Shown in pieces: positions 6,868 to 64,000 of a DNA stretch of 64,000 bases; within the stretch, counting starts at the first letter, position 1; each line of letters starts with the position of its first letter. Origin of the DNA: Giardia intestinalis (lineage: Eukaryota); NCBI GenBank assembly GCA_000002435.2, contig CM018791.1, one strand, 5' to 3'. The position numbers were made by a program, and so were the translations under genes. A model generated the notes under the pieces. It worked only from the letters and a program-made list of their open reading frames with translations, was not told where the DNA came from and searched no databases.

Positions 6868-7003
6868 TTTTAAAGGTTTATATTTTTAGCCTATAACTTT
6901 TCAACGCAGTAGAGGTCAAAGTTTGCACGCTGTAGTAAACCATCAACAGGAACACAATCCAACTCATGACTAGTAAATCGTAAAAAAAGAAATCCGAAAA
7001 ATA

Positions 7004-9454: not shown

Positions 9455-10252
9455 TACGATCGAGTTACAGTTACTGTAGACCTAAGAACTTGGGCGCTTG
9501 AGGTAACCAAGACAGCTATAAGATAGCCTATGGCTTTTAATGCATATTTGTAACTTTTAGTCAGGTGTCATCTGTAACAGGAAGAATATTGCATAATAGT
9601 TTGGACAAACATACATATCTGTATAATTCGCATTAGAGATGTAAGCTACAAAGAATCAAGCGACGCATGGGTCTGTGCCTACATTACTGCACTAATCTGG
9701 TTTGGACAACGTTGGAGACCGTACACGTAACTATATAGTTCTGCTCTCTCCAGTATTGAGTTGGCTTCATAGCCTGATGACTTTGGTGGAGTAGATATGA
9801 TAGTTGCAGTTCTACAGTATTAGTTGGTATTAGAAATGAATCTGCCAATGCAGTTTCCAAGTGTTGTAGACCCGTACAGATGGATCTGGCTTTCTAGAGC
9901 TTTCTGTATTCCACAACAAACACTGACGGGCTTGATGGAGTACAGTAAGGTTCCGTTTTCTTAGAGCTGTCCTTCTTGAGCCACGAGGCATTTTAATTAC
10001 ATTGACATACCCGTTTTAACCCTTTCACTATATGCTGCACTCAAATAGTTATGCAATGTGGTCAACCATATCAAACATCTATGCCGCAGTATCTACAAAG
10101 TCGCATCCGGACCCACCGTGAGCGAAGGTTTTATTTTAATTGGTTGCAGTAAAGGCAGTAAGAGCTACAGGCTACAGACTACAGTTTAGATTGACGCCCA
10201 GCACCTACCTAGAAAATATTTGTGCACTGAAGTGTTTACTGCGTTAAGAGAA

Positions 10253-12610
10253 CTAAGAAAGGATACCTATATATCTAGTCAGATCGTGCTTAAGCGCCAG
10301 CTCGAGGGGAGAGATCCCAGGGCCCTCATGATACGAGGAATTTGTGTATACAGAGCTTTCTAGTGGGGCCAGGTAGTGTACTATATCGTCATAGCCTTGT
10401 ATTATGGCATACATTAGAGCGGTAAGCCCCTGCATGCTGATGAATGTTGCCTCTACACTCAGGAGCTTAACTGCTACCAGATCCCCTCTGTATGCCGCCT
10501 CCATGAGTGCAGTCTTACCACTAGGGTTGATGACCCTCTTATAAATATTACGCATGACAAATATGGCAACGTGGGCACCGGTCTCCACAGCCTTAAACCA
10601 CACAGGACTCAAGACACGCTTCTGCTTGGGATCGTCCAAGTGCTGTAAGAGTCCGCTATCAACAGCATAATGCAAAAGCCTCTCGATCCCAAGGTTATTA
10701 ACTTCTAAGCATCTAAATACCGAAATTATTCCATTGTTGTCATAGGGAAATGGTATATTTAAGTGGCCGGCTAGGACCTCCAAGAGTGCAGTGGCTGAGT
10801 CATAAGACTGCCGAGAGACGGCATAATCGAGAGCAGTCATGTTGCTACTGTCAATAGGCATGAGTGCTTCTATGATCTCCACAGGAGCACTCGTATGCTC
10901 AACGGAGTCTGGCTGTGGTGCCAATAATGCCTTCACATAGTGTACATCGTTAAAGATACATGCAAGCATCAAGGGTGTGACACCATCTTCATCTCTCGAA
11001 GAGCTATATTTATGTAAGTAAGTATTAAACATTTTATCATCTTTAACAGCAATGGCATAGTGCAGAGACGTGAAGCCTCTCGATCTTCCAAGATTCCTTT
11101 CTTTTTCCATTAAAAGCCGACATATCTCGCGCCTCCCTTGAAGAGCAGCAATCTTAAATCCAAATCTTCCACTCTTAGATACAAGTCCTCCATCGTATAT
11201 GGCCAACACCTTGCAGGCATCTTCACAGAAATCTTTCTGATCAAGTGCATACATCAGTGCACTGTTCCCGCTTCTATCCTGGTATCCGCCCTCAAACGGA
11301 GCCAGGTACCTCACCATCTCATAGCAGTAGTTGATGACGGCAAGGATCAATGCTGTCATATTCCCGGTTAGCTGACCTGAGGTTGAATTGAGATTGGCAC
11401 TACTACTCAGCAGTCTTACTGTCATACCTCTTCCTACAGCGGCTGTTCTGGTTCCCAAAAGAGATAGTTGGACGGAGCTACTCAGCTGCGAGCCGGATAG
11501 ATCAGAGTACGTGGATGTATCTTTACCAACAAACCCTGCTTCCCGTTCCAACAGAAGTTGTGCAAGGTCAAGGTTTTGATTATCTATAGCATGCATCAGT
11601 GCAGTCCATCCATCAGAATCCTGACAGCACGCTTCGGCACTTATCAATAGGCGGCACCCATCAGAGATAGGGAGGTAATTACAGGCCGCATGCATCAGCG
11701 CTGTCCGCCCCTTCAGATTTGCTCTCTTTAGGAATCTAAGTTGGCTATGCACAAGATCAGGGTCTCCTACCTCAAGAGCATCGAAGAGAGGAGTGTTCTC
11801 CATTGCGTCCCGTTGTATCACGGAGTCTGTTGAGAAATTATCCCAATTGAACGATCCTGCTTCAATCAGGGAGCTTCTGATGTGGTCCCCCATGTTCTCC
11901 AGAGCGCATATGGCTGCAAAGCTTGGTCGTGATAACTCTTGACCAACCATTTTCTTAAGAAGGATGGGGAGATGAGAAGTGCACATAGCGTTCTCGGGAC
12001 AGTATCGAGAAATAAGATCCTGGATAAATCTTCCTAGACGTGCTACGCTTTGCTGCTCGGACTTTATAGGATTAGATTCTAAAACGCATTCCTTTAAGGG
12101 CACGTATGCCGGCCTGTAAAGAACGTGGCCGTACGAGTCATAGTAAATTTGTTCTTCACTGAATGTAAAGAAGGCGTGGAGCTGCATGCCATTGTACTGA
12201 TAATTGTGTACCAGTTTCACGATCGCTAGCGAAACCCCTACTATTAGCTTCCAAAGCTCAAGCTCTGTCAAAATTGTACCCTGGAACTCCTGTTCTTCCA
12301 AGATTTGATCTAATCTTATACCATGACAATACTGCTCGAAAGAGTACACTTGCCTCTTGCCTCTATCGAACACTAAAGAATAGGACGTCAAGATGCCGTC
12401 TCCGTTGAGCTTTGAACCCTGAATGGATGAGCTCATGGAGTCCAGTCCTGTAGGGAGCGGTTTCAGATACCCCACAAGGTTGTGCGCTAAGAGGACTGCA
12501 GATCCTCCTGCGACAGCTGTGTTATCCAAAGAAGACAGTAAAGCAAGCTGGGTGCTGTCTATCATAAACTGTTTTTTAGAACAATCGGAATCTATAATAG
12601 TGCAACGCAA
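10253..12610 (-). CDS. ankyrin-repeat protein (Protein 21.1 family) with a degenerate NEK-like kinase remnant at the N-terminus
   Basis: There are at least 11 ANK repeats (GRTALMHAACN..., GWTALMHAIDNQNLDLAQLLLE, GNSALMYALDQKDF..., GVTPLMLACIFNDVHYVKALL, GKTALMEAAYRGDLVAVKLL, GLTALMYAIIQGYDDIVHYLAP, etc.). The first roughly 200 aa (EQYCHGIRLDQIL...ELWKLIVGVSLAIVKLVHN...) look like a kinase C-lobe lacking the HRD and DFG motifs. The ATG lies only 3 bp from the stop codon of the upstream gene. Confidence 0.75.
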   Translation of the reverse strand: MRCTIIDSDCSKKQFMIDSTQLALLSSLDNTAVAGGSAVLLAHNLVGYLKPLPTGLDSMSSSIQGSKLNGDGILTSYSLVFDRGKRQVYSFEQYCHGIRLDQILEEQEFQGTILTELELWKLIVGVSLAIVKLVHNYQYNGMQLHAFFTFSEEQIYYDSYGHVLYRPAYVPLKECVLESNPIKSEQQSVARLGRFIQDLISRYCPENAMCTSHLPILLKKMVGQELSRPSFAAICALENMGDHIRSSLIEAGSFNWDNFSTDSVIQRDAMENTPLFDALEVGDPDLVHSQLRFLKRANLKGRTALMHAACNYLPISDGCRLLISAEACCQDSDGWTALMHAIDNQNLDLAQLLLEREAGFVGKDTSTYSDLSGSQLSSSVQLSLLGTRTAAVGRGMTVRLLSSSANLNSTSGQLTGNMTALILAVINYCYEMVRYLAPFEGGYQDRSGNSALMYALDQKDFCEDACKVLAIYDGGLVSKSGRFGFKIAALQGRREICRLLMEKERNLGRSRGFTSLHYAIAVKDDKMFNTYLHKYSSSRDEDGVTPLMLACIFNDVHYVKALLAPQPDSVEHTSAPVEIIEALMPIDSSNMTALDYAVSRQSYDSATALLEVLAGHLNIPFPYDNNGIISVFRCLEVNNLGIERLLHYAVDSGLLQHLDDPKQKRVLSPVWFKAVETGAHVAIFVMRNIYKRVINPSGKTALMEAAYRGDLVAVKLLSVEATFISMQGLTALMYAIIQGYDDIVHYLAPLESSVYTNSSYHEGPGISPLELALKHDLTRYIGILS

Positions 12611-31871: not shown

Positions 31872-32000
31872 GGGTGTTGAGTGAAGGATGCTCTGTCAAA
31901 TCGTCTAATCAAGGTATTGACCTCAGACAGGGATAACAAGCCATCATTGCATTTTTTACGTTTCACTTCGATTTATTCACTTACTTGTGGTGGAATGCCT

Positions 32001-50200: not shown

Positions 50201-50332
50201 TGGGAAGACCTCTCGAAGTCGTCGCTTTAACTTCAAAGCCGCGTGGATGTCGCTGAAAATCATGACGACCGGCGAGTCGTCCACTATCACCGTTATGGAT
50301 GCTACCTTCGCCTTGTGCTCATTTGGGATCAT
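47261..50332 (-). CDS. hypothetical protein (1023 aa) with a long Q/A/P/S-rich low-complexity centre
   Basis: It is a long ORF. It has a structured N-terminus (about 90 aa), a central region of about 450 aa that is low-complexity and rich in Gln, Ala, Pro, Gly and Ser, and a structured C-terminal third. Confidence 0.55.
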   Translation of the reverse strand: MIPNEHKAKVASITVIVDDSPVVMIFSDIHAALKLKRRLREVFPDTVFTKNIENEMLEKQAKKVAGLIIQRRLFISPTLSDEDLRIEIQGKINPGTFMKRSATPVAVGAPWPSSYESALSEKIKEAEKHVEKFASASQPQAPGVDMRSKIVYSAPAGSAAFAKSEQQQPQPQVFGRRSDSHVNQFLTPANLATAAGASQVQGDIPVHAASIIPIPIHNGVTNPLTSANIFGPNAVNPGPNIIALGNVPLAQGSTNNMAASTSMASGQGPQIRVLTIPQLQAGAVTNQQGGYATALSNRILAHQPILGANYQGLAAYATTGSQPAPYVAALQQNAQQIAQLIPGSAVLTQLAAPGAMVGKVASQAPNVMPLSVQPAVHPAVAPVSISSATMVGQSKSQLDSADLSIPNSATITDHQADQTRASDPPLSSMNTSYYSQPPMSDNSEIIFTIDSDECTDYPNTQEACCVNSHNILSMNDIPMAEQIGSSSSPLLELITKWSRMIRQSRPASPMSVTQQEGEFYQYYKHLNTDNAPHPSVKPTAPKLWAPADQLSLFISVYDQIFTGTPDNIKQAWEGHKRAFLDSSVTTTKTAVHAIENNTIDVHDLSSSSSPSSPSPSPVHSSFLPQSSSSLSSSSKTVENAMEAPATQPIDDIPQGAANPVAGLTSQLKEARESEPSAFSKHIFATVPTNPNMSALQAGQELLNIGFPDKQKFFSDLLTQFPSTVSVSELAQINPNLSSLLSNSVATLGVDQRQKQDLGVQEATAQMLTHLNFVNGKSSDIDNLLRNCQPPLTYLRAPNELPLKTLFTAPTSNWGSSMPTIDCLFPPNKNIQVDVILLLYLLSFGGAVDEVKSDNDDLNFLPSEASSQILKEYTRKRCVELQHKLLTLYHQEDFLELKAGTPSLYSRGNIRTTVTNYVTCAQNTNLNLHLSLQTDNNPGKAVLSLPCVLLDSEHLALILPRTKEASIGKDKEIDRLLESITFMNGKLTRREFYSRGRASQMIPSISSITLGSGTDSDLKKHVRL

Positions 50333-50709
50333 TCTTACCCTTGAAATTTTTTAATTGGAAGAAAGCTCAGGTTATACGAGAATAAGTATTTTGATATTGA
50401 ATGCTACATGAGAATAAGGTAAGGTCAGTTCCTCCAGAGATATATCTCTATCTCAGGATAACAACGTGAGCTTTTTCAAAGTACTCCCATAATTCACTGC
50501 AATTTGAACTACAAGTTAACGAGGCCAGCACGAGATCTTGTGACGCTGCTGATGGGTCGTGACTTCTAGTTACTGGTAACCCTGCTGGCACAATGTCTTT
50601 ATAGAACGGTGTCACAAAAAGTGTTCAATTGTTTAACTGCTTAGTTGTCTAGGCATTTGAACACCTCCTCAGCACCATCCTAAGGACTTTCTTATGTTTG
50701 CTATGATGT

Positions 50710-51057
50710 CTACGCCGCTTGGACTTCGTAATTTTCAACGACAGGAATTATGGGTTTGAGATGGGCAACTGTAAGGGTTGTGCCAAAACGCCTGCAAGTG
50801 TCCAGGATAGTCTGACATGGCACAATGGCATCTCCAGTCGAGTTGATAAGCACTGCTTCGAGCTGGGGTATTTCAAACGCCCGAGCTGCTAGGCGAATGA
50901 CCTTTTCGGTGGATGAGGCTTCTGGGATGTTAAATACATGGTACGTGTAGAAGGGGTCAAAACCCTTATATATCTTGACTTGAATCATACGCTTCTGGGC
51001 CAGATATGCCTCCTTGAGCTCGTCAGAAACGGGTATTGTCTGGCTAATCATCTTCAC
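50710..51057 (-). CDS. small hypothetical protein (115 aa), possible beta-grasp fold
   Basis: It is a short ORF between two long genes. The alternating hydrophobic pattern (VKIYKGFDPFYTYHVFNIP...LTVAHLKPIIPV) may indicate a ubiquitin-like fold. This is a weak call. Confidence 0.35.
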   Translation of the reverse strand: MKMISQTIPVSDELKEAYLAQKRMIQVKIYKGFDPFYTYHVFNIPEASSTEKVIRLAARAFEIPQLEAVLINSTGDAIVPCQTILDTCRRFGTTLTVAHLKPIIPVVENYEVQAA

Positions 51058-51241
51058 TCTTTTGTTTAATCTTGAAGTTTTAATCCTGAACCAGCCTTTG
51101 AACAGAGATTGAAGTAGTATGTGTTATTACCAATAGTTGTTACCAATAGTTGTGTTGCCGCCTCTACCTCGTATCCACTCCAGCTCACTCTCAGCGCAGA
51201 CTAATAGCTGTGTACTTCGCGAAAAATTAAATTTTAGGTAA

Positions 51242-52906
51242 ATGGATACCTCCTACATCCACTCAACACCTTCTATGACAGCTGGGCTTCTCCCGGCATT
51301 CATATATCCTCCTATTACTCCGCGTGTGGCCCCTACGCGCGAAATAAACCATCTTCTGGACCAGTCCCATGCCCTGGCCTCAAGGTGCGAAATCCCGCAA
51401 TCAATCAAACTTTTTCTAAAAGCCGAGCAATTGTGGAACGAGCATGGAAATATTAGTAAGGAAGATCATGTTTATCTTCTCGTTTATCGTGGATTTCTAT
51501 ATAGTTTATATTACCAGACCGCAGAAGATAAAGTTGGACGCGCTGGCCTAGAGTTGGCTGTGGTGTGTTATATGGAGGCAATTGATCTTGCAGAGTCAAT
51601 CTTGCCCCACACAGCTGACACGGCACTCCCAAGGATGTATCTTGCTCTAGAGCTCTACTATGCACGCTGCTACGAGAAGGCTACAGTCCTGCTCAAACAG
51701 GCTGAAGCAATAGTGCGCAATGCTGAGGGTCCTCGATCTCTTTTAGTCCATATGTGCTCATACAACATACTGGCCTGCTATGTAGTCATGCTGCAGTACA
51801 GTAACGAGTACCGTGCAGGCTTAATCTCCACTCTCGCTGCTGATCAACTCCATGGGAGCGACACACCTTTTCCAATAGATCATCGTTTAATCAAGGAGCT
51901 AGGCAGTCTTGGCGTGCAGTCGCTCCAAGGCCTGGGCCAACAGTATAGGTACTTAGACAACATCATTTCAAATGCACAGCTGCTAGAGCCACCAGAGCAC
52001 AAGAAGCTCGATGAGCTACTTGCTATGGGTCTTGGCCAGCAGGGAGAGCTGTTCCGGAAGGACGTTCTGGAGAAGATCAAAGGCAACCCACAACTATATG
52101 AAGGATGCAATAGTCTAATCATGTTTGACTTTTTGCAGAGTAGCGAGTTTTTGCAGGCAGGATCTCTGGGAATATGCCAGCCGGAAGCTCTCCTTGGCAA
52201 AGAGTTACTGGACAGCAAAACTGGAAGCCCTGGAGCAAATGCATCGTTACTTCTCCAAACTACTGCAAACAATGGACCCCGCATCAGTTCACTTGCTAGA
52301 GATCTCACTGAATCACGGTACAGACAGGAGCAAGAGCGCTCTATACCAGCTACACATGCCTCGTCCCCTTGCTTAATTAATCAACAAGTTATGAATGCAG
52401 GTACTTATTCACTCTCAACGCCATCAAGTGGTGTACCCAATGCCCGCTGTCCAGCAAACCCCGCTGGCGACCTTGTTGGCATAACCCCGCCTGGAACAAG
52501 AGCCATGAACAGCAACCATAGTAATCCAGACATGGAGGCCTCCATATCCTACAAACTAAACTTCCCGGTAGAGACCTTGGCATATACAATGGATGAAGAC
52601 GACCTGTACGCCGTTATAACAGAATTGGGTTCGATTGAAAAGTCTATGCGCCAGATGGTTGGAAGCACACATTATTATACTACAGCGGTCCAGCGTCTGC
52701 GGCGTATATGTGAAGGGCTCCAAGAGGCAACCTTGCTAAGAAACGACAAAGACGTGATGGCTAGGGGGCTCGATGCATTCAAGCACAAGTTCCGATACTT
52801 ATCATCAGTTGAGGTAAAGCCAAAAATGCTGGGCTCTGGTGGCAAGCCAAAGAAAGAGAAGGGCGCCAAAGGTAAGAAAGGTAGCAAAGGCAAGGTAAGG
52901 AAATGA
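51242..52906 (+). CDS. hypothetical protein (554 aa) with a TPR-like N-terminus and a Lys/Gly-rich C-terminal tail
   Basis: It is a long ORF whose C-terminus is GSGGKPKKEKGAKGKKGSKGKVRK. Confidence 0.55.
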   Translation: MDTSYIHSTPSMTAGLLPAFIYPPITPRVAPTREINHLLDQSHALASRCEIPQSIKLFLKAEQLWNEHGNISKEDHVYLLVYRGFLYSLYYQTAEDKVGRAGLELAVVCYMEAIDLAESILPHTADTALPRMYLALELYYARCYEKATVLLKQAEAIVRNAEGPRSLLVHMCSYNILACYVVMLQYSNEYRAGLISTLAADQLHGSDTPFPIDHRLIKELGSLGVQSLQGLGQQYRYLDNIISNAQLLEPPEHKKLDELLAMGLGQQGELFRKDVLEKIKGNPQLYEGCNSLIMFDFLQSSEFLQAGSLGICQPEALLGKELLDSKTGSPGANASLLLQTTANNGPRISSLARDLTESRYRQEQERSIPATHASSPCLINQQVMNAGTYSLSTPSSGVPNARCPANPAGDLVGITPPGTRAMNSNHSNPDMEASISYKLNFPVETLAYTMDEDDLYAVITELGSIEKSMRQMVGSTHYYTTAVQRLRRICEGLQEATLLRNDKDVMARGLDAFKHKFRYLSSVEVKPKMLGSGGKPKKEKGAKGKKGSKGKVRK

Positions 52907-52914
52907 GATGCGGC

Positions 52915-53175
52915 CTACACACTAATCAGCCGTGTATGCACGTACACCTGAGACCTATCTGTGATTCCACACTCGTGAATAGTCATTTCTCGCTCCAATT
53001 CATAGCCATTATATGTGAGGACCATGAATTCTGGCTCACAGCAATAGAAGCGTTGAAGCATCGTCTTCAGTTCGAAGATGGTATGATTGGGGTCAACATC
53101 CACAGCTGCTTTCACGGCATTGTCATCTGTCGCAAATACCCACATTTTGGTCTTTTCTAATTTTAAAAATGTCAT
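52915..53175 (-). CDS. small ubiquitin-like (beta-grasp) domain protein (86 aa)
   Basis: MWVFATDDNAVKAAVDVDPNHTIFELKTMLQRFYCCEPEFMVLTYNGYELEREMTIHECGITDRSQVYVH follows the ubiquitin-fold pattern (I.V....V.V....TI.ELK..I......P..Q.LIY.G..L.D..TL.E.GI...S.I.L). It has no C-terminal GG. Confidence 0.5.
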   Translation of the reverse strand: MTFLKLEKTKMWVFATDDNAVKAAVDVDPNHTIFELKTMLQRFYCCEPEFMVLTYNGYELEREMTIHECGITDRSQVYVHTRLISV

Positions 53176-53969
53176 TTACACACGTTGATCCCCCTGCTGG
53201 TACCCGCGGCTATGAGATCGAGCGAGCGGCAATTAATATCGTTGCACTAAAAACAGATAGAAGGGGTGCTTTATTTTTGACTGATGAGTCGCTTATCTAT
53301 CACGGTAATAACTTCAGCTTCCATGTTCCTCTCCGTGATATAACACTCCACGAAGCGTCAGCAGGGATCTTTGAGTCGCCGTTCATTAAGTTGACCTTCC
53401 AAATCCCCAGTAAAGATATGGCGGGTACGATCAAGTTCAATTTCAAGAGTAGATCCTTTGATACCTTTGTATCCGTGTTTCCTGTCATGTATGCAAAAGC
53501 TCGTCAAGAGGCGCTTCAAGCACCAAAGCCGCCAGCAGCACCGAATTATGCTATGGGTAACGCTGATACCATCAGAGAGAGAGAAGCTCCTAATGCTTTG
53601 CCGCCGCCACCAAGTAATCCACCAAGTAATGTGCCCCCATACCCTGGGCTCCCTGCTAACATAGACACTATGGAGACACTTAGAAGTTTGACGAAGGTAC
53701 GACCATATTCACATCTGCAGCAACAGCAACAGCAACAACAGCAGCAAGTGCAGCAGCAACCATATGTAACAACTGTCACCGCACTAGAAGCACCAGTAGC
53801 AATAATTGAACAGGAAAACCGCCCTCTTTTAGAAGAGGACAGCCAGGCCTTCCGTACAGTGTATGAATCTACGTGGGGAGTAGTGTACAACAAGGATTTC
53901 GACCCGAAAAATGCTTCAAAGGAGGATCAGCTGGGAATAACACAGTGTCTGCGCCCGGCCATGGACTAG
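53169..53969 (+). CDS. hypothetical protein (266 aa) with a polyglutamine tract
   Basis: The ORF has an N-terminal PH/GRAM-like beta-rich region (a weak call), a Pro-rich segment and a HLQQQQQQQQQQVQQQ tract. Confidence 0.5.
   Translation: MSFTHVDPPAGTRGYEIERAAINIVALKTDRRGALFLTDESLIYHGNNFSFHVPLRDITLHEASAGIFESPFIKLTFQIPSKDMAGTIKFNFKSRSFDTFVSVFPVMYAKARQEALQAPKPPAAPNYAMGNADTIREREAPNALPPPPSNPPSNVPPYPGLPANIDTMETLRSLTKVRPYSHLQQQQQQQQQQVQQQPYVTTVTALEAPVAIIEQENRPLLEEDSQAFRTVYESTWGVVYNKDFDPKNASKEDQLGITQCLRPAMD
53718..53762 (+). repeat. CAG/CAA trinucleotide microsatellite encoding polyQ
   Basis: The sequence (CAGCAA)n CAACAGCAGCAAGTGCAGCAGCAA is visible directly within the CDS at 53169..53969. Confidence 0.8.
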
Positions 53970-54000
53970 TTACCCACTGCCATCGATAATCTGGCAGGAG

Positions 54001-54786
54001 CTATTGCTTGTCGGATGGTATGTACGCCAAGAAAAAGTAATTGTGAGCGTCCTCAAAGCGGCACGCTATCTCTGTTTTGAATAGCACCATAGACGTTTTG
54101 GAAGTGAACTTCTTTGGGTCAAACGAGGTGTTGTGCGCAAACAGCGGGACACAACCATGGCGGAGGCAGTAGCGGGTGACGGCCTCCATTATGTCTTTGT
54201 CGTATCCGTGCCGCCTATACCCATGGTCAAAGGTCACGAGCACTTCAACACATGGTGTATCTGGAGAGAGCTCAATTAGTGCTGGAGTAATGTCCTTGCC
54301 AGCGAGTGGGGCTCCTGACCCAGCAGTGCTCTCGGATAGAGGCGTGTCCGGTGGCTTAGAAAAGACGGCGCTATTAGCAACTTCTTGAGGTGGGTCACAA
54401 TTGGAGAACGGCACCTCCGAGAGAACAAGACCCATGGGGTGGAAGGAAAGGATACCTACCGGCTCAAAGGTCTCTATCTCCGCAATCATGAAGAGGAACG
54501 TAAGCGATATGGACTTGTAGGAAGAAAGAACAGTTAAGAAAAATTCGTTAAGAAGTTCTGGCGTATTCTTGTCAGATACCGGGAACCCTATGCGCCGTCG
54601 AAGATATTTGCTTCGGAATGTGCTGATAAATGTGCATAGGTCTTGAGATATTAGAGGCCGAACAAACACGTGGTTGGCTAGTATAACGCTGGGAAATGGC
54701 ATAGACATTTTCTCCGCGTTCTGCATACTCCTGTAGGACACCGTTATGTCGTATCGCCCGTCATATTCTTGTCCATCTTTAAGCAT
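54001..54786 (-). CDS. GNAT-family N-acetyltransferase-like protein
   Basis: A motif-A-like segment is present: VLVTFDHGYRRHGYDKDIMEAVTRYCLRHGC. This matches the V.V...YRRxGxG..L...A pattern. The ORF track starts at 54816. I prefer the Met 10 codons downstream (ATG at 54786), which leaves an AT-rich promoter in the gap with the divergent neighbour. Confidence 0.45.
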   Translation of the reverse strand: MLKDGQEYDGRYDITVSYRSMQNAEKMSMPFPSVILANHVFVRPLISQDLCTFISTFRSKYLRRRIGFPVSDKNTPELLNEFFLTVLSSYKSISLTFLFMIAEIETFEPVGILSFHPMGLVLSEVPFSNCDPPQEVANSAVFSKPPDTPLSESTAGSGAPLAGKDITPALIELSPDTPCVEVLVTFDHGYRRHGYDKDIMEAVTRYCLRHGCVPLFAHNTSFDPKKFTSKTSMVLFKTEIACRFEDAHNYFFLAYIPSDKQ

Positions 54787-54818
54787 TTTAAATTTAAAAG
54801 GAAAGACTTCGAGCACGA
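54787..54818. promoter_or_regulatory. candidate bidirectional AT-rich initiator region
   Basis: The tract TTTAAATTTAAAAGG lies in the roughly 30 bp between divergent start codons at 54786(-) and 54819(+). Giardia promoters are known to be short and AT-rich and to sit immediately upstream of the ATG. Confidence 0.35.
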
Positions 54819-55631
54819 TTGCATAGGATGCTATTGTCCCCCGCTGCCTTTGACATTGCCCAGGTTCAGCGTTTGGGTAGGCTCTTTGTCAACGTTCAGC
54901 GGCGTGTTCAGCAGACAGCCACAGGTCTCACTACAGCGAACAGCAATATGCCGTATCTTTTAATTATGAACCTGCTTGATACCTTACGAAAAAGCTGCAC
55001 CACGGGTGAGTGTCATTACTATGTTGTTCCGTTGTATTCTTCAAACATGAACAGCAGAGTGACGTTTCTTTCCTGCAACAACGCTATCCATTCTGACACA
55101 TCTGATGAGTCCATCCGACACACACTAACCCTCCACTTATTCGGGTCTCAAGCGTGCTCCTCAGGATTTTTCCATACCGGCCTTCTAGTTCTAGAAGCGG
55201 ACCCTATTGACAGCACCTTCTACACAGAAGTTGATGTCTTAGCATCCACTGTTTTGCATGCGGATTCAGTAATTTATATAGCGGATTTGCCTATGAGTGC
55301 CCGCTTTGCGTCTAGTCAGTTAGAGGAAGACTTTTGTGTTCGCTCTATGCTGGGCAAAGTCCCTGGTGTGCTGGCGCTGGAAGGCCATGAGAAGCTGTCT
55401 ATTAAGGAGCTACGCGACGCATTCAAGGATATAGTAGAAGATGCCGTTGCAGATATTCTTTCAGGATTGCTCGAGTATGAACCTGAATCCTCTAACAAGA
55501 CTACACAGGCTCTTACGTCCTTTGTACTAATTTATGTACCAGTCACTTGCACCATCTTGGATGAGTGCTACTTAAAAAGTATGTCTCTGCATTTGCATAA
55601 GCTTTCAGAGCTATTAGCTTTTACTACCTAA
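54819..55631 (+). CDS. hypothetical protein (270 aa)
   Basis: It is an ORF divergent from the GNAT-like gene. No domain was recognised. Confidence 0.4.
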   Translation: MHRMLLSPAAFDIAQVQRLGRLFVNVQRRVQQTATGLTTANSNMPYLLIMNLLDTLRKSCTTGECHYYVVPLYSSNMNSRVTFLSCNNAIHSDTSDESIRHTLTLHLFGSQACSSGFFHTGLLVLEADPIDSTFYTEVDVLASTVLHADSVIYIADLPMSARFASSQLEEDFCVRSMLGKVPGVLALEGHEKLSIKELRDAFKDIVEDAVADILSGLLEYEPESSNKTTQALTSFVLIYVPVTCTILDECYLKSMSLHLHKLSELLAFTT

Positions 55632-56213
55632 CTCACGATTTGTTCCATCAACCGATCGCTTCTAGTTCTTAATGTTAATAAGTTCCTATTTACAAATTAG
55701 AACCGAGAGTCGTATAAACAAATTATCTTGTTACCTAGCTGTGTTTAGCGGTACTACACTTAGGGACTATCATCTACAGACAGCGCAGATCTGCTCCAGC
55801 AGGTCTTCCATGCCATCTTCAGCAGATGAGGCGGCTACAGTGAGAGGCTTGACGAGGCTAATCAAACAGGTCTTGAGAGTCAATCCCCTGGAGTAGTTGA
55901 GAGAGGAAGAGCCATTGGCCACCTGAGATTCAAAAGGCCTTGAGGCCATAGGTAGGATGAGCAACCGTACGGCAGTAGTGACATATGTATCAGCTAAGCA
56001 CAACTGCCTATCTGGAGACTCTAACACACAGGACACGAGGTGAGCCCAGAGGAGAGATCCTTGACGTTCCCAGATTCACCCTCGGGGAACTCTATGAGAG
56101 GCTGGATAGCGTGCTTAGCGAAGGCATCATGGGCATAGTCTGATCCCTCAAAGGCTATCCGAGCCTTGCCGTGGAGGAGATCCAGCTCGACGGTCTGGGT
56201 CAGCACGGTGTAG

Positions 56214-58761
56214 ATGCCATCAAGCTCGAGCTGGCCGCTCTTCTTAACCTCCCACCCAGACGTTCTCAGACACCACCAGGTGCTTACGGACGAGGGCTTC
56301 ACCTACATTGTCATAGACCGCCACGACAGTACCCTCGAGCGCCCCCTCGCCAAGCACAAACGAGGGAGGATCCCCGTCCCTATCACTATGATCCTCTCTG
56401 TCATGAAGCAGGTCGCTGCCGCCCTCGCCTACCTCCACGGCCTCAGTGGGGCAAACACTAGAGGCCTCGTCCACTGCGACCTCAGGCCTGCCAACGTCCT
56501 TATCAGCGCAGATGGTGAGTACTTCATCATCGCTGGCCTCGAACTCTGCAAGGACGCCCTGTGGAGTGAGAGCACCATTGCAGGCATGGCAGCGTACATG
56601 GCCCCCGAGGTGCTCCTCCACAACGAGCCCAGCCCCGCCTCTGACGTGTGGAGCCTCGGGGTCATCGTCTACGAGATGGCCACTCTAAGGAAACCGGACT
56701 TCCTGAAAGGTAAGGAGCCAGCAGAGGTCTTCGTCGATGAGTGGAGGCCGGACCTGAGCGGTGTCACTGATGGCTTCATACAGAATGTTCTGGAGAGGAT
56801 CTTTGTATTGGAGCCAGAGAGGAGGCCGACAGCCAGTGAGCTGCATGAGACACTCACTGCGGCTGACATCCCAGTTGGTGAGCTGGGGGGTCAGTGCGTG
56901 ATGCTGAAGTACAAGTGCGGATCCTTGGAGGCTGCGCTGAATGGCGCTAACGCCAGGATCGCGCTGCTGGAAGAGGAGGTTAAGACTAAATCCACTAAGA
57001 TCGACGCACTTGAAGACCAAAGTAAGGAGCACCTAGTCATGATTAAGGCACTGGAGAATAGGCTTGCACAGTTCGGTGACAGGATGAACACGGCTGGCCC
57101 TCAGTCCAGCCTCTTTTTGTTGCCCAGGCTGATGCGTGCTGCGCATACGAACGGCATGGAGACCGTCCGGATGCTGCTTGAAGAAAGACTCGGTGTTGGT
57201 CAGCGTGACGCACAGGGGATGACGGCCCTCATGCACGCGGGCCAGCAGGGGCATGTTGATCCCGTCGAATTGCTTGTTGGGGAGGAGAATGGCCTCCGGG
57301 ACAAGAGCGGCTGGACTGCGCTCATGCACGCCGTACACAACAACCATCCTGAGGTAGCCAAGATTATTGCCCCCTACAAGCATAGGAAGAGGAATAGGGA
57401 CAGCCGGACTGCTCTGATGATGGCCGCAGAAGAGGAGTATGCAGAGATTGTTTCCCTTCTGGCCCCACATAAGACTGACAGTGAACGCAACACAAGCTTG
57501 ATGAATGCTGCAACTAACTCGCCTGCAAAAACTGTTGAGGTGATGGTTGGGCATGAATATGGTTTTGGAGACTCGCATGGCCGTGCCGCTTTGATAATAG
57601 CAGCGTAGGAGGGAAATCTTAAGACGCTCAGAGCCCTCATTGAGTACGAGAAGGGGCTGAAGGATAATAATGGTTGCACTGCCCTCGTCCACGCAGTTCG
57701 AGTTGGTCACCGGGATGTTGCAAAGCTTCTCATGATACAAGAGAAGGACGCCGCTGGCTGGACAATGCCCATGTACACCGCAGCACTCGAAGACACGGAC
57801 ATGGTGTCCCAACACCTCGATGAAAAGGATCAGAGGGACAAGCAAGGCCAGACAGCCCTCATCATCGCTGCCCAGAACGGAAGGGGCGAGACGGTGAAGC
57901 TTCTGATGAAGCATGAGAATGGTGTCCCTGGCTTGATAAGCCTTATCTGCTCAGCGTGTCTTGGCGACGTCTATGCAGTCAAGAGCAGTATCCACGAGAA
58001 GGGGCATGCAGACATCATTGGGATGACGGCATTCATGTGGGCTGCATACCAGGGCCATCAGGGAGCAGTGGAGATCCTCCTCGAACACAAGAAAGGGATG
58101 GAGGACAAGGACGGGAACACAGCCTCCGCGTACACCCTCATGAACAAGCATACAAGCATAGCCATATTTCTTCGCGAGCATGAGGCTCCCTGTGGACCCC
58201 TTTCATGTGTGCATCCTTCACTGAAGAAATTGGCATGGTGAGGAAGCACTTTTCTGAAACGAAAAAAGAAACAATGATGATAAGACTGTGCTAACAACGC
58301 TGCAAAAACAAGATATGAAGATGTTATGGAATTCGTCGATTCAATCAATAACAAGGGTGTCATACGCTCATGTGAGCCGCCGACAGAAATGGCCCAGCAG
58401 CTGTGAAGGAGCTTGCTTCGCTTCAGGCAGGCAGAAGGCGTCATGATACCTCAATATAGACAACTGGATTATATACAAGGGAACTACGCTGATAAGAGCA
58501 GCGGCGTGTGACCATACAGAAGTGACGAGATTGCTCCTGGAGAAGGAGGGAAGTGTGCAGAATAATCGCAGTAAGACAATCCTCATGCTAACAATACGTA
58601 ACGATCAGATAGAGTGCGCGAGACTCCTTGCAGAGAAGGAGAGTGATATAAGTAAGGGCACACTCTTAGGCATAGCCAGACAGAGAGGCAATGAAGGCCC
58701 TCTTCTTGGAGTAGCCAAAGTAAACAGTGAATATCTCTACATCAGATCTCCACACAGGTAA
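56214..58761 (+). pseudogene. decayed NEK-like kinase/ankyrin-repeat gene (C-lobe-only kinase, in-frame TAG, frameshift)
   Basis: The reading frame opens at kinase beta4-beta5 and the hinge (LFLTSHPDVLRHHQVLTDEGFTYIVIDRHD). It retains HCDLRPAN but has AGLEL in place of DFG. There is a stop codon directly upstream in the same frame, so there is no N-lobe. The ankyrin array is interrupted by a TAG at 57606..57608 (...GRAALIIAA*EGNLKTLRALIEYE..., probably CAG to TAG). It continues in the same frame to 58241. ANK-like repeats then resume in a +1 frame (TTLIRAAACDHTEVTRLLLEKEG..., 58440..58761). Confidence 0.6.
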
Positions 58762-58999
58762 TAGCCTCTGCCTTTGAAGACACATGCACAGATACTACCA
58801 TCTTCATATCATGATGACTGTAGCGCAGATCTCGGCAGTAGTAGCCGCTACTCCATGCTCCAGGGTTCTGTGCTGCTGGGGTCTATCTTGGCTTTGTTTA
58901 AAGATCTCACAAGCAAGCTTCCCTCAGTTCCTAGCCATCCCCAGAGATGAAGGGTAATCGCGGATAGCATAGTGAAAGATTTCCCTCTATCAGTACTCC

Positions 59000-61900
59000 A
59001 GAGCCTGGCGCCCCCTTCGATCGCTCAACGGGCGTGTGCTCAGGCCGAATGTGCTTCCAGAAGTGCTCGCACGCCAGTCTGTCCAGGCTCCGACCTTCTC
59101 ACGGCCTCGTGTGGTCCCTAGCGGCGACCTCCTCTTTGGTCCTGCTTCATAGCGGGCGAGGGCGGGTCTTTGCGTTCGTTTTACAATGCATCCATCTGTC
59201 ACGACGGCAGTAACCATTGAGGCTCTGGCTCCATTGATGGTCCTGATGCAGCGAGAGTCTATCCTGGCAATATGGAGTGGGCGGGGCTGTGGGTCTGTGG
59301 CTCGCTATGAGGGGGCGTCGTTATTTATCTTTGGCCGTTGCTTCTTCTATGAACGGGTAGGCCCTCTATCGCCGTGGCCCTTTGGGACTGATGATGGTTG
59401 CTTCTGTTGCCCCTCGGTGTCTGATCAGTCCGTGGTTCTGGGCCAGCGCTCCTTCTCAGTCGCAGTCATTCTGGTTCCATAGTGGGTCCGCTTGGTGGTT
59501 GGAAATAGGCTGACAGGGGGCAGTTGCTGGGTACTCATCAGCTGCCACATGGACAGCAAGAGCCAGGCAGAACTCTCGGTGCCCGCTGGTGCCATGGACT
59601 GGACTGAATGGGTGGTGTCCGCCTGTGCCCCTGTCTTCTCGCTGTGGTGTCTATCTGGTCGCTGGATAGCACCCACGCCCACCGCCTTGCACTTGTGACG
59701 GGCTCTGCTCTGGTCGCCGGGCTGGTCTGATCTCCAGCTTGCGTTGCACTCCCCGAGACACGGAGGCAACGATTGCACGGGGCCCCTGGTTGTCCCTCTG
59801 CACCAGTGGAGGAGAGCCCTTGTCTGTTGTCTACGATCAGCCCATCCTCAGAGAGCCTGGCCTGGGCGGGCTGCCGTGCGGCTTCTGAGTGTGCCCCAGG
59901 CGAGTTCAGCAGCACAGCCCTAGAGGTGGCCGGGTGGAGTGAATCACTCGAGGGATGCACGTAAGGAGCGCACAGGTCCGGGGGCGCCCGAACAGGCTCA
60001 GCCCTCGCACCGGCTCCTCCCCGGTCGCCTCAGTCGCGGCGCCACCGAGAAGACGCGTGCCCCGTCCGACGACCCGGCACACGGACCGACGGCTGGCGGA
60101 TCGCATGGCAAGGTGGAATAAAAAGTTTGGAACATTGGCGCTCGCGTGGATCGGGATGCAGCATTCTCCAGGCTGGGAGGCTGTGCGCGCGGGCATTACC
60201 TCTAGCATGTTCCTCACCACGGCCCCAGGCTGATGGGCGGCCGAGGCCTTGTCAGCGTCACGCACGCCTCTTGCCGGCATTGGGCCGCCCGGGATCGTAC
60301 ATAGGCGGGGCTGCAGAGGCCTTCCGCGGCTCCTGCGGGCAGTCGCCTGCTGCGGAGAGCACGCCCAGCTTGGGAGCTCCTCGGGATCACCGTGCAGGTC
60401 ATCGAGACCGGTTCGACGGGCCCCACGTTAAAGGAGGCGCACGGGCCGGCGAGCGTGCCGTCTTTGCAGGCAGGCTCTCGCTGGCCGGGGTGGCGGGGCT
60501 CTCCTGTAGCCCTCCACCGGGAACGCCCTATCTACTGGCAGCGGTTCCACGGTTGCAACGCTACAGGGGCGGGCTGCAGCTCTTCCGCAGGATCTCGTCG
60601 GACAGGCAGTTGGCGTAATCTCACGTGCACTCACCAGGGGCTCCTCGCCCTCGTAGAATAGCACCCCGCACGCCCCAAAGCCAAATCGAAATGCAGCAGG
60701 TGCAGTCGACTCTTCTCGGGTTGTGGCGCTGATCCAATCAGACGCCGCGGCACGCCCCGAGCAGGCTTCATCCAGCAGCGGGTGCTCTAGCCGCGCCCCT
60801 GAGGCAAGTCTGCTTCTGACCCCGTCCCTGTGCCGACCCCAGCGAGCCCCCGACGGCGCCGGAGAAGGAGCGCCTTGCGGAGCCCCTTACTGGCCCCTCG
60901 GTGCAGGAGGATCCCCGGATTACCGATTTGCGTGCAGCAGCGGGCTGGGATGAAGCCGTGGGCACCGATGCCGGGGCACTAGCCACGGAGACAGCAGCGT
61001 TAGTAGCCAGACGAACCTCTATTTCACCCTATGGTTTTTGGGGTCCCAAGTTAGCGCCCCCGGAGCAGCACCGGCTGTACACTGTTCACTGCACTCGGTC
61101 GGCCGGATAGTGTGGCAGCTACGGCTACTCTAATTACGGCGCTTGATGTGTTTACTGCTGGGGAGGCGTTGCTCTCCGCTCTACGGGGTGGCAGGATTGC
61201 TCTCACGTGCACGGTAGTACCAGTGGACGCCCCTCAGCTGCCGGGCCGGAGCGGCTCTTGGATGGGTGATTCTATCCTCCTCCGTGCAGGCGCCCCTCGG
61301 GGCCCAGTAGACGTGCGTTGCTGTGTCCCGCAGCCTGGATCCTTGCCTTCAGACGCCAGCACGGAACTCTCTAAACTTGTCCTCCTGCGGCGTCCTATGC
61401 TGCTATGCGCACTTCGTTTTCAGTAAGCCCTTAAGGTCGCAGTCCAGGACTACCGGCCCCCGCATCATCGGATATGGTTGCTGACTGCGGCCGCTTACGC
61501 AGTCGCAGCTGGTTCCGCACTGGCCCTGTATCGGTAGCCTCGGGCCTGCATCGCCGGTGTGCGGCCCACTTCGCTCTGCGGGTGTACCACGTATAGTTAC
61601 CGGCCTCGGATTTGGTGCACCGCTGGGGCAGATAATAGCAGCAGCAATCCTGCAGCCCCGTGTGGTCGTCTGGCAGTGGATGCGAAGGTTTGCAGGTGGG
61701 AGTGGAGTCTTGGGGCTGCTCTTATCCACGTCACCGGGCGCCGTGGTCAAGGGCTCTGAAGGCATACCCAGCCCTCCGCTGGACGAGGATCGTTGGGCTG
61801 CTCAGAGCCCTGCAAGCTGCGTCCAGGCTGGTATTAGGTGGCCCAATGGCGTAGCAGTGGGAGCTGTGAGGCGAGACCTGCCGTGCACCGAGCGTCGGAC

Positions 61901-63100
61901 CATTGCTACACCGACTCCCCAAAGGGACACACTCAGCCCTGAGCCGGATGCCCACTTGTACTGTGGAATGAGCGCCTTGCATGCTTGCCGTGAGCAGCTA
62001 TCCAAGGCTCGAGGTTAGCGGGCGGGCCCCAGCTATCGCCCTCCATTATCTCAGCCGGCTAGCAAAGAACACTTCTCGAGGCAGCTCCCGACTGGAGGAC
62101 GAGTGGATCTCAGCCGCCGGCACAGAACTCCCCTTCTCCGGGGACGTGATCCTCGGGCCTGTGTGGCTCACGATCTCCATCCCTCCTTTGGGGCGGGCTG
62201 ACTGTAGCCCTTCCGTATCATGGCTAGTGCTCTCTGAAGCTCTGATGACGCGCGGCTGTGTCTTACACGTGTCGTTACAGTGGGACCCGCGCCTGCCCGC
62301 CCTTGCGTCGCTTACGGTGTAACCAGGGGCGACCGGGCACGCTCCTATCGGCACATGGCGCCCTCCGTTGTGCTGGCTCCTGACGGCAGGCCACTCTACC
62401 GGGTCTGGTACTGCAAGGACCACCTATAGCGGGGGCAGGTGCGTCTACGCATCACCTCTGCGCTGTAGACAGTAGACGGCACGCCATCAGTTAGCACAAG
62501 ATCCGGTCCGCGTCTTCTCCGGCTCTGTATCCATCAGGCTGTGCTACCATTACTATAGCCGCCCTATGACAGAACTAGGCCTTGCTTCGCAGAAATCCAA
62601 AAACAAGGGTCGCAGATCGGGCGGCACGGGTCGCCCTCGGGCTAATCCACCGCTGCAGCACGGCCACTGCGGGCACGTCCAGGTGGCCATGGAGCTGGGG
62701 GCGGCCTCGGTCGAGGATCATCGCTCGACGCGCCTCTCCTGCAGCGGCCAGGGCGTCCCGGCCGGTCTCGGGCGAGGAGGACGCTATTGAGGCACGGAGA
62801 AGTACGGTGGCCCACAGGGTTCGGCGGGGGGCCGGATCGCGCAGAGCTGGTCGAGGAGACTAGAGCGCCAGCCAGGCCGGGGCGCCGCCGGGGGAGCCTG
62901 GCGCGAATCCCGATCACGGCGGGAACACCCTCGCACCGATTGGGGACAACACAAGGGCAGGCCACGTAGGAGGCCGTCTTGATTCTCCGCTTTACCCCAG
63001 GACGCATCTGAGCTGCCCACTCGCGCTCTGGTCTGCAGGCAATCAGGGTCTACGGCCGGCACCGGATTACGCTCTTTGGGTCTCCGACATAAATCTAACA
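59000..63100. other. about 4.1 kb GC-rich (roughly 65% GC), ORF-free block of unknown nature
   Basis: There is an abrupt compositional shift from the roughly 50% GC of the flanks. All six frames hold only short Arg/Pro/Ala/Gly-rich ORFs of 170 aa or less, as expected by chance in GC-rich DNA. Degenerate internal repeats are visible, for example GGCTGCAGAGGCCTTCCGCGG and GGCTGCAGCTCTTCCGCAGG. No universal rRNA motifs were found. Confidence 0.5.
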
Positions 63101-63178
63101 AATGCATTATTTTATCAACCAAAAAATGATCACTGGCGAAATTATGTTCGCACACCGGCATAATCCAAAAAGAATTTA
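63101..63178 (+). promoter_or_regulatory. AT-rich upstream/initiator region of the VSP gene
   Basis: The composition switches sharply from GC-rich to AT-rich (AAATCTAACAAATGCATTATTTTATCAACCAAAAAATGATCACTGGCGAAATTATG...AAAAAGAATTTA) directly 5' of the ATG at 63179. Confidence 0.3.
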
Positions 63179-64000
63179 ATGCTATTGACAGCCTTCTGTA
63201 TTATGGCGAGCGTTCTCGCGGCAACCTGTACCGTTGAGGCCAGCACACGAGATTGCGCAGAGAGTAAGTGTGAAATGGTTGGCGGCACTGAAGTTTGTAC
63301 GGAATGTAAATATGCTGGGAATGTCCCAATTAACGGAGCATGTAAGCAAAAAGGTGACAGCGCCGTTACCACTGCTGGTTGCAAAAAGGCAAATGGAACT
63401 GGATTAGCAGAAGACAAGGTATGTGAACGGTGTGACGGTGCCTATTTCCTCTATAAGGGTGGATGTTACGGTGTAGATAACGAACCTGGACAGAAACTCT
63501 GCACCAAGGCCGCGGAGGGAGCATGCACAGAGGCGGCTCCGGGGTACTTTGTTCCACCAAACGTAGCTGGATCAGATCAGTCTGTGATAGCATGTAACTA
63601 CACTATCAGTGTACCAGTTCTTGATGGTAGATCATATATGGGAGTCGCTCACTGTACACTATGTGACTCTCCCAAAATAGCAAGTGATCCTACCCCTAAG
63701 CCTGCAGTGTGCACAGCCTGCGAGGATGGGTACTTCCTCGGAGCAGCTGGTGATAAAGAGAGCAAATGCATATTGTGCGGAGATACATCTGGCAGTACAT
63801 GGAAGGGCGTTGATGGGTGCCTGAAGTGCACTGCATCGGGAAAAGCAGACACCCCTGCCACATGCACTGAGTGCCAAGAAGGCAAGTACCTGAAAGGTGG
63901 CGATCCCACTAGTTGTATTCTCAGAAACGCATGCACCGGAACACACTTCCCCAACGACAATGTAGAGAACAAGAAGAAATGCCTTCCTTGTGGGGAGAAT
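63179..64000 (+). CDS. variant-specific surface protein / high-cysteine membrane protein (VSP/HCMP), partial; continues beyond the window end
   Basis: This frame runs off the window edge and is not in the ORF track. My own translation gives a signal peptide, MLLTAFCIMASVLAATCTVEA. It is followed by a Cys-rich ectodomain with many CxxC pairs (CTECKYAGN..CERCDGAYFLYKGGCYG...CTACEDGYFLG...CILCGD...CLKCTASG...CTECQEGKYLKGG...). The GGCY and GYFL motifs are hallmarks of Giardia VSPs. Confidence 0.85.
   Translation, partial: MLLTAFCIMASVLAATCTVEASTRDCAESKCEMVGGTEVCTECKYAGNVPINGACKQKGDSAVTTAGCKKANGTGLAEDKVCERCDGAYFLYKGGCYGVDNEPGQKLCTKAAEGACTEAAPGYFVPPNVAGSDQSVIACNYTISVPVLDGRSYMGVAHCTLCDSPKIASDPTPKPAVCTACEDGYFLGAAGDKESKCILCGDTSGSTWKGVDGCLKCTASGKADTPATCTECQEGKYLKGGDPTSCILRNACTGTHFPNDNVENKKKCLPCGEN

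Follow-up and report, generated by a model that had tools for sequence, protein, structure and literature searches.

The 64,000-nucleotide window of Giardia intestinalis analysed here contains a GC-rich block of 4,069 bp (58998–63066) directly upstream of a VSP gene. The block is non-coding DNA, encoding neither protein nor recognisable RNA, and probably constitutes an extended non-coding upstream spacer of the VSP gene, in an assemblage-A VSP island that is absent from the corresponding site in assemblage E and in an assemblage-B-like isolate. As such, it looks like a long and GC-rich example of VSP-flanking DNA that is already known. Its description as GC-rich, non-coding and non-repetitive draws on tests of GC content, stop codons, period-3 signal, homology, repeats, folding and dinucleotides.

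Extent and composition of the block

Likelihood change-points place the two boundaries at 58998 and 63066. The block has a GC content of 63.8% versus 48.4% for positions 1–58000 of the window, in agreement with the preliminary description, which had reported a 4.1-kb jump relative to flanks of about 50% GC. Ordinary intergenic gaps elsewhere in the window are 32–47% GC and reach at most 909 bp; the distance from the ankyrin remnant on the left to the VSP start codon on the right is 4,417 bp, all of it devoid of genes. With a dinucleotide δ* of 0.060, against a 4-kb core Giardia baseline of 0.049 ± 0.019, the block carries a core Giardia-like signature that is unlike VSP coding sequence. A small AT-rich islet can be read from the sequence at 60110–60135. 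It gives no Rfam or Pfam signal, no functional evidence was seen for it, and the only ATG-initiated ORF that follows it, as read by eye, is about 25 codons long.

Flanking genes

The left flank is a NEK kinase-ankyrin pseudogene on the plus strand (56045–58760), delineated by tblastn with its P15 orthologue, Pfam and period-3 analysis. The orthologue is intact and 818 aa long. Its residues 11–78 align to 56045–56248 and residues 79–795 to 56247–58364 in another frame, indicating a frameshift near 56247, and the ORFs of the pseudogene are further interrupted by a stop at 57606. The ORF fragments match Pkinase and Ank in Pfam, with a weak Ank_2 match in 58522–58758, so that the decayed NEK-ankyrin flank proposed earlier is confirmed. 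The pseudogene nevertheless retains a strong period-3 signal (z of 7–13), and it has no local GC-enrichment gradient beyond that of the flanks. Between the ankyrin remnant and the block lies a short spacer (58762–58997) of ordinary composition, 40–60% GC in 60-nt windows, which an independent contig (L006) covers at 100% identity.

On the right, the block gives way to the AT-rich promoter/initiator region of the VSP gene (63067–63178, plus strand), which is 34% GC across its last 100 bp and corresponds to the AT-rich island noted previously at about 63090–63178. The sequence ...AAAAAGAATTTAATGCT resembles the VSP initiator consensus PyAatgTT (PMC2996952); ...AATTTAATGCT and the 34% GC stretch precede the ATG at 63179. 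The VSP gene itself is represented by its 5′ part (63179–64000, plus strand) and extends past the end of the window. The ORF starting at 63179 matches PF03302 (E = 4e-15), as expected from the earlier assignment of this flank to a VSP, and contains eight CxxC motifs in 273 aa. Its N terminus, MLLTAFCIMASVLAATC, is signal-peptide-like by eye. The closest relatives are VSPs, at only 41–45% identity.

Synteny with other Giardia lineages

The locus was compared with a contig of P15, which belongs to assemblage E (L012), and with a contig of an assemblage-B-like isolate (L014). Nucleotide homology to P15 stops at 58458, equivalent to position 14153 of L012. At this locus, P15 contains the intact NEK gene followed by genes of 215 and 193 aa, a kinesin and RPL1. 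In the B-like isolate, the neighbour gene runs straight to the same downstream genes, with no NEK gene and no block. The segment 58459–64000 therefore has no counterpart at this site in either lineage. Because P15 carries an intact NEK gene and housekeeping genes, and the B-like isolate neither NEK gene nor block, the alignments identify this segment as a VSP insertion that is lineage-specific and coincides with a synteny break. The block is thus absent from the locus in both lineages, and the variable VSP/NEK neighbourhood suggested by the preliminary description is borne out.

Comparison with other VSP surroundings

The surroundings of VSP genes are gene-poor (PMC7000408), and VSP regions are higher in G+C, form G+C islands and, together with NEK genes, occupy synteny breaks (PMC3091692). 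Published Giardia genomics likewise describes GC-rich islands where VSP, NEK and protein 21.1 loci are non-syntenic, and HCMP genes are a further associate of such regions. For VSP intergenic regions, the median length is 1,280 nt and the mean length 2,131 nt, as compared with 79 and 392 nt genome-wide, spacers of 5,172 and 7,000 nt are on record, and the 2 kb upstream of VSPs average 53.9% GC (bioRxiv 10.1101/2022.03.07.483299). The earlier view of 4 kb of non-coding DNA as exceptional accordingly holds for the core genome but not beside VSPs (PMC2996952, PMC7000408, PMC3091692, bioRxiv 10.1101/2022.03.07.483299).

The block shares the main features of these gene-poor, GC-elevated flanks. It immediately precedes a VSP whose initiator is AT-rich, belongs to 4.4 kb without genes and exceeds the genome average in GC. 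Like the VSP/NEK/protein 21.1 islands, it lies where synteny breaks, next to a NEK-ankyrin gene, and where short-read assemblies fragment. Raised allelic heterozygosity or duplication would be a further trait of such islands; what bears on it here, indirectly, is the fragmentation of short-read contigs from 55.9 kb onward. The block differs from published VSP flanks in its higher GC (62% across the 2 kb before the VSP) and in its length, roughly double the VSP intergenic mean. It differs from the sampled flanks in that it is similar to none of them and contains neither a TE relic nor a VSP pseudogene fragment. The spacers of inverted VSP pairs (2–4 kb of non-coding DNA, with examples of 2,648–5,172 nt) are comparable in size, are non-coding and lie 5′ of a VSP, but the left neighbour of the block is the NEK-ankyrin pseudogene rather than a second VSP, and inverted repeats are lacking. 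A more distant parallel is provided by the surface-antigen regions of trypanosomes, where antigen genes also lie within non-syntenic stretches holding non-coding DNA (comparison in PMC3091692), although Giardia VSP islands are small and dispersed.

Seven other Giardia loci, about 120 kb in total and five of them with VSPs, have no sequence similarity to the block. At one of these VSP loci (L016), the upstream gene-free flank measures 5.9 kb with 52% GC and the downstream one 2.2 kb with 64% GC, and at another (L017) a 0.9-kb flank is 58% GC. High GC is not universal in VSP flanks, since three of the five other gene-free flanks measured are only 43–52% GC (L019, 43%; L018, 50%; and the upstream flank of L016). 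Besides this variability, other observations count against the VSP-spacer explanation. At 62–64% GC, the block is well over the published VSP-upstream mean, and it is unlike all VSP flanks sampled, though the literature reports many spacers alike. The lack of a GC-enrichment gradient in the NEK pseudogene, and the failure to find the block or the VSP past 59429 in the other public datasets queried, count likewise. In that literature, resemblance among VSP spacers, or to subtelomeric gene-free DNA or TE relics, is frequent but not universal.

Alternative explanations

A possible, though clearly less likely, account is that the block is a decayed transposable-element relic, or one member of a multi-copy family of gene-free subtelomeric sequences, that was carried along with the VSP. 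This account is about where the block came from, and the block could be a VSP spacer all the same. In VSP intergenic DNA, relics of retrotransposons are reported, as is homology to subtelomeric regions free of genes (bioRxiv 10.1101/2022.03.07.483299), and RT/EN sequences are reported at non-syntenic loci (PMC3091692). GilM, which is 5,474 bp long, encodes a reverse transcriptase (PMC7000408). GilM, GilT and GilD are linked to synteny breaks and to regions that are variable or telomeric. Every short-read contig from A1-type samples breaks at 55.9–56.4 kb and four of them restart exactly at 57211, as expected near repeated or heterozygous DNA. On the other side, most of GilM is expected to be ORF, so that a 4-kb piece of it would normally contain RT sequence.

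The block itself, however, has no trace of such an element. Pfam searches of its six stop-masked frames give no domain at E ≤ 1, including reverse transcriptase (RVT), endonuclease, integrase and transposase, and a motif search finds no Y/F-x-DD, consistent with the earlier observations that an RT motif is missing and that the block is not an intact retroelement. A protein remnant, from a retroelement or otherwise, was rejected on the basis of these searches. The block lacks period-3 signal as well as the tandem arrangement and repeats of the Gil elements; no terminal, internal or inverted repeats were found, and there is no second copy elsewhere within the 64-kb window, nor any similarity to the other loci compared above. 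The degenerate direct repeats reported in the preliminary description do not rise above chance. The 21-mer pattern has one gap-free match at ≤1 mismatch, the other copy (by eye) differing by an indel, and CAGCAGCGGGY occurs twice, with a few identical 11-mer pairs per 4 kb estimated to arise by chance. Self-BLAST and three repeat tools detect no repeat families or tandem arrays, only chance-sized matches.

It is very unlikely that the block represents one or more heavily decayed protein-coding genes. A decaying pseudogene does adjoin it, and T exceeds A at 58.8–59.8 kb and 61.0–61.8 kb, a skew resembling that of the minus-strand genes of the window. Stop codons, however, occur at random density in every frame (31–48 per frame over 58900–63200, with ~36 expected per 4,100 bp of block composition) and the longest open stretch of 217 codons is close to the shuffle mean of 213, in keeping with the original finding that all six frames are ORF-free. 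In the block, period-3 z-scores range from −1.2 to 2.2, as compared with 4–7 in the VSP and the far higher values that the neighbouring pseudogene retains. Besides the lack of Pfam matches, the concatenated open stretches (1,758 aa) have no relative among the 8,000 candidates listed from 5.8e9 proteins, and the longest stretch (217 aa) has no match among 1.84e9 representative proteins. A decayed VSP in particular was rejected: tblastn with 24 VSPs found no VSP remnant in the block, and the CxxC count and dinucleotide signature also speak against one. The proposal of a decayed GC-rich gene or retroelement is thus left without a reading frame, periodicity, homologue or RT/EN/integrase trace to support it.

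A long or structured non-coding RNA locus is highly improbable. The block is gene-free and adjoins a gene family under epigenetic or RNA-based control, and the AT-rich islet at 60110–60135 could serve as a cryptic Giardia promoter. Against this, Rfam returns nothing for the block at gathering thresholds and, even at E ≤ 10, only one chance-level lncRNA match. Mean folding z-scores are +0.12 and +0.18 on the two strands (44 windows per strand), equal to those of a coding control, and no G-quadruplex motif is present in the block. With z-scores near zero and no such motif, both structured RNA and G-quadruplexes were rejected, and the earlier suggestion of a structured or long non-coding RNA gains no support. 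Nor is the block conserved in the other lineages examined.

We also give very little credence to an assembly chimera or a contaminant joined to Giardia sequence. Several null results would fit one: past 59429, the other public datasets queried yielded neither the block nor the VSP; ten block ORFs are not present among 15e9 proteins (exact look-up); and three exact-word probes, two of them in JGI metagenomes and one in GTDB genomes, have no match. The low identity of the VSP to its closest relative points the same way. Yet L006, from an independent short-read sample (SRR18693187), crosses the left junction and extends 430 bp into the block, to 59429, with 100% identity, and on the other side the block continues unbroken into a typical VSP promoter and signal peptide. 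Bacterial DNA would be densely coding, and the core-like, non-VSP-like dinucleotide signature argues against foreign DNA. A search for plasmids with the block gave no similarity; on this result and the null exact-word probes, foreign or plasmid DNA was rejected.

Finally, a relic of rDNA or of its intergenic spacer can practically be dismissed: Giardia rDNA, at ~75% GC and near telomeres, resembles the block in high GC only, no SSU, LSU or 5.8S match appears at E ≤ 10 in 58500–63500, and a 4-kb spacer without rRNA flanks is unexpected given a unit of ~5.6 kb with a short spacer. The universal rRNA signature strings are absent across the whole window, as had been observed before, and together with the Rfam results they rule out an rRNA relic; the block is indeed not canonical rDNA, and the spacer relic put forward earlier finds no rRNA remnant within or beside it.

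Source of the high GC and possible roles

If the block is an extended VSP spacer, it would have come or originated together with its VSP when rearrangements relocated VSP cassettes, and may then have been kept as gene-free flanking DNA. Its high GC would belong to VSP islands locally, having either come with the source sequence or been generated by GC-biased gene conversion, rather than reflecting mutation pressure across the genome. In assemblage A, gene-conversion tracts are both GC-enriched and VSP-enriched (PMC12669663). Recent A1/A2 substitutions show no AT-to-GC excess (49 versus 57; 52 versus 60), which suggests that the GC of the block is local and not due to genome-wide drift. Parsimony counts with the B-like outgroup imply an A-lineage GC equilibrium near 0.65. 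This value was judged an artefact of AT drift in P15, given equal GC3 values of 0.50 in A and B and the lack of bias in the recent A1/A2 changes, and genome-wide GC drift was rejected as the source.

Any regulatory or chromatin role of the block is purely conjectural. As flanking DNA, it may set the VSP apart in a chromatin context of its own, in support of mutually exclusive expression. We consider it unlikely that the block is a lineage-specific cis-acting VSP element or a hotspot of GC-biased gene conversion; the observations that speak for these ideas are its position and composition. A cis-acting element could take the form of a chromatin boundary, a silencing platform or an origin of non-coding or antisense transcripts that contribute to the mutual exclusivity of VSP expression.

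Significance for VSP biology

Taken alone, the block is of little importance, being one more gene-poor VSP surrounding that happens to be unusually GC-rich and clean. It does, however, provide a handy test case, both for the role of long VSP-upstream regions in the epigenetic control of antigenic variation and for why such regions are GC-rich, through GC-biased gene conversion or inherited composition. The case is convenient because the boundary is sharp, the decayed NEK gene can be compared with its intact counterpart in P15, and ‘empty’ sites exist in two lineages. Were the block a conversion hotspot, its footprint would directly attest to continuing recombination in the otherwise clonal assemblage-A1 lineage.

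Results

The GC-rich block occupies window positions 58998-63066, where likelihood change-points place a sharp rise and a sharp fall in GC. Across these 4,069 bp the GC content is 63.8%, compared with 48.4% for window 1-58000. Each frame of 58900-63200 contains 31-48 stops, against ~36 expected for 4,100 bp of the block's composition, and the longest open stretch is 217 codons (shuffle mean 213). Codon periodicity is absent from the block (z of -1.2 to 2.2), whereas z reaches 7-13 in the adjacent pseudogene and 4-7 in the variable surface protein (VSP) gene. Taken together, these tests and those for repeats confirm the GC jump and the lack of open reading frames in the preliminary description, with the exception of its degenerate direct repeats, which are at chance level. 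The first pattern has a single gap-free match, the second copy read by eye carrying an indel, and the other is an 11-mer present twice, a few such pairs being expected in 4 kb by our estimate. Self-BLAST and three repeat tools, run on the block for a larger repeat unit, returned nothing above chance-sized matches.

As had been described, the block lies between a decayed NEK kinase-ankyrin gene and a VSP. The pseudogene (56045-58760) has an intact 818-aa orthologue in the assemblage E isolate P15 (11673-14129 of the syntenic contig L012); the window copy is disrupted by a frameshift (near 56247) and by a stop (57606), and its nucleotide identity to P15 is 72%, compared with 83% in the genes around it. 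At its right end, the block gives way to the AT-rich island noted earlier (34% GC over 100 bp), which leads into the VSP gene (Pfam PF03302; ATG at 63179, continuing to the window end at 64000). This gene has a signal-peptide-like start, MLLTAFCIMASVLAATC, and its start context, TTAATGCT, is near the published VSP initiator consensus PyAatgTT (PMC2996952). Among 5.8 billion proteins its best relative is only 41-45% identical, unlike the adjacent core genes, which are abundantly represented.

Across 57211-59429 the window sequence recurs at 100% identity in six contigs from other read sets, which establishes its left junction with the block, and the block's initial 430 bp, as real; beyond 59429, the public sets queried hold no independent copy. 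Wherever short-read contigs of A1-type samples include the neighbour genes, they stop within 55866-56416; four other independent contigs start exactly at 57211. The 169-aa ankyrin ORF is present on only 7 contigs, and the neighbour gene in 129 blocks of the collection. These ends, starts and counts suggest repeated or heterozygous sequence there, which would fit the higher allelic variation and duplication reported around VSPs (PMC7000408).

Contigs assembled from public Giardia read sets carry identical (100%) copies of the neighbouring genes; identity to an A2-like isolate, P15 and a B-like isolate is about 98%, 83% and 74%, respectively. In P15 the neighbour gene is followed by the intact NEK gene, a 215-aa gene, a 193-aa gene, kinesin and RPL1. 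On the B-like contig (L014) it is followed directly by a 216-aa counterpart of the 215-aa gene and then by the 193-aa gene, kinesin and RPL1. A single NEK gene is thereby seen in a gain/decay series: intact in P15, decayed in the window and missing at this place in L014. Because nucleotide homology with the window ends at 58458 and neither locus contains a stretch above 55% GC, synteny breaks here, and 58459-64000, comprising the block and the VSP, is a segment specific to the lineage. The synteny check proposed earlier thus finds the block absent at this place in P15 and the B-like isolate.

The identities first considered, namely an rDNA-spacer relic, a decayed gene or retroelement, and a structured or long non-coding RNA, are all unsupported. 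A structured RNA is dismissed, as folding z-scores, averaged per strand (+0.12 and +0.18), are similar to those of a coding control and the block has no G-quadruplex motif. An rRNA identity is rejected because no Rfam family, rRNA models included, matches the block at curated thresholds and the universal rRNA strings are absent, as already observed; at E<=10 the sole match (12.9 bits, to a mammalian lncRNA model) is chance-level. Likewise, a retroelement or other protein remnant is discounted, since Pfam yields nothing relevant at E<=1 in six stop-masked frames and the Y/F-x-DD motif, previously noted as missing, was not found. A decayed gene is dismissed because the open stretches lack homologues in either protein search: 1,758 aa of them gave none among the matches listed from 5.8e9 proteins, and the longest gave no match to 1.84e9 representatives with full HMMER. 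By exact look-up, none of ten block ORFs is recorded among 15e9 proteins. A decayed VSP is rejected, as tblastn of 24 VSPs returned only noise and CxxC motifs number 0-3 per block frame, the VSP having 8 in its first 273 aa. Finally, foreign DNA is dismissed: the dinucleotide relative-abundance distance of the block to the window core (0.060) falls inside the spread seen among 4-kb samples of the core (0.049+/-0.019), three exact words probed from the block, two against JGI metagenomes and one against GTDB genomes, went unmatched, and there is no plasmid similarity. From VSP coding sequence the block is 0.128 away by the dinucleotide measure.

Coding sequence fills the window densely up to ~55.6 kb. 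Intergenic gaps there measure 54-909 bp and have 32-47% GC; the exceptions are a 74-bp gap of 57% GC and a GC-rich left edge. The only Rfam match in the window is full-length, to the Giardia box C/D snoRNA GlsR6 (31890-31948, minus strand, 89.5 bits). At the left edge, window 1-700 is 54-69% GC per 100 nt, and its sole ORF (166-687, minus strand, 62% GC, GC2 0.66) has no Pfam match and weak period-3. It may be that a further GC-rich non-coding block extends off the window and ends here.

Discussion

An extended upstream non-coding region is typical of vsp genes, and inverted pairs are separated by 2-4 kb of non-coding sequence (Adam et al. 2010, PMC2996952). VSP surroundings are gene-poor, with more allelic variation (Xu et al. 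2020, PMC7000408). Higher G+C, atypical codon usage and G+C islands are features of VSP regions, which co-occur at synteny breaks with genes for NEK and protein 21.1 (Jerlström-Hultqvist et al. 2010, PMC3091692). VSP intergenic lengths have a median of 1,280 and a mean of 2,131 nt, vs 79 and 392 nt genome-wide, with spacers of 5,172 and ~7,000 nt among them (preprint 2022, 10.1101/2022.03.07.483299). At the other VSP loci sampled, gene-free flanks span 0.9-5.9 kb at 50-64% GC (43% for the flank at L019, a locus of the A2 isolate DH). Of the defining features of Giardia VSP-flanking regions, the block shows the position beside a VSP, the long gene-free span, the raised G+C and the lack of synteny, and it lies at the GC-rich, long end of the range; the 2 kb upstream of its VSP is 62% GC, against 53.9% upstream of VSPs in the same preprint.

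Other loci offer further observations. VSP-upstream non-coding DNA of DH (L016, 8885-10000) and of assemblage B (L018, 936-2154) is 67-70% identical over ~1.25 kb with no consistent reading frame; therefore, some VSP upstream regions are old and retained. A second gene-poor stretch in DH (L016, 11329-13524; 64% GC) adjoins a VSP and includes the remains of a VSP C terminus; it has no sequence in common with the block and differs greatly from it in dinucleotide signature (delta* 0.22). Downstream of a four-VSP array in L019 (AHHH01000192.1), a Ser-rich open frame of 1,162 codons (6623-10770, 43% GC) lies outside called genes.

As to the high GC, GC-biased gene conversion would be a plausible source: in assemblage A, conversion tracts (median length ~3.3 kb) show enrichment for both GC and VSPs (PMC12669663). 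No local GC gradient was found in the NEK pseudogene to support it. The block may also have originated as a TE relic or subtelomeric repeat; VSP spacers often contain TE remnants or are homologous to gene-free subtelomeric sequence (10.1101/2022.03.07.483299). Genome-wide GC drift is dismissed, because counts of recent substitutions between A1 and A2 (49 vs 57 and 52 vs 60) reveal no bias. An excess of AT-to-GC changes seems to mark the A branch, but AT drift in P15 accounts for it, as GC3 is 0.50 in A and B and 0.38 in P15; across 44826-55631, compared with L012 and L014, S-to-W changes predominate on the P15 branch, which is AT-drifted relative to the window and the B-like isolate.

The block is non-coding, adjoins a VSP, has a native-like signature and is missing at this place in both of the other lineages compared; it would have moved or arisen with the VSP during rearrangement. 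It would persist as flanking DNA and may also give chromatin context. The block is real and correctly delimited, and exemplifies a property already documented for the neighbourhoods of Giardia VSPs.
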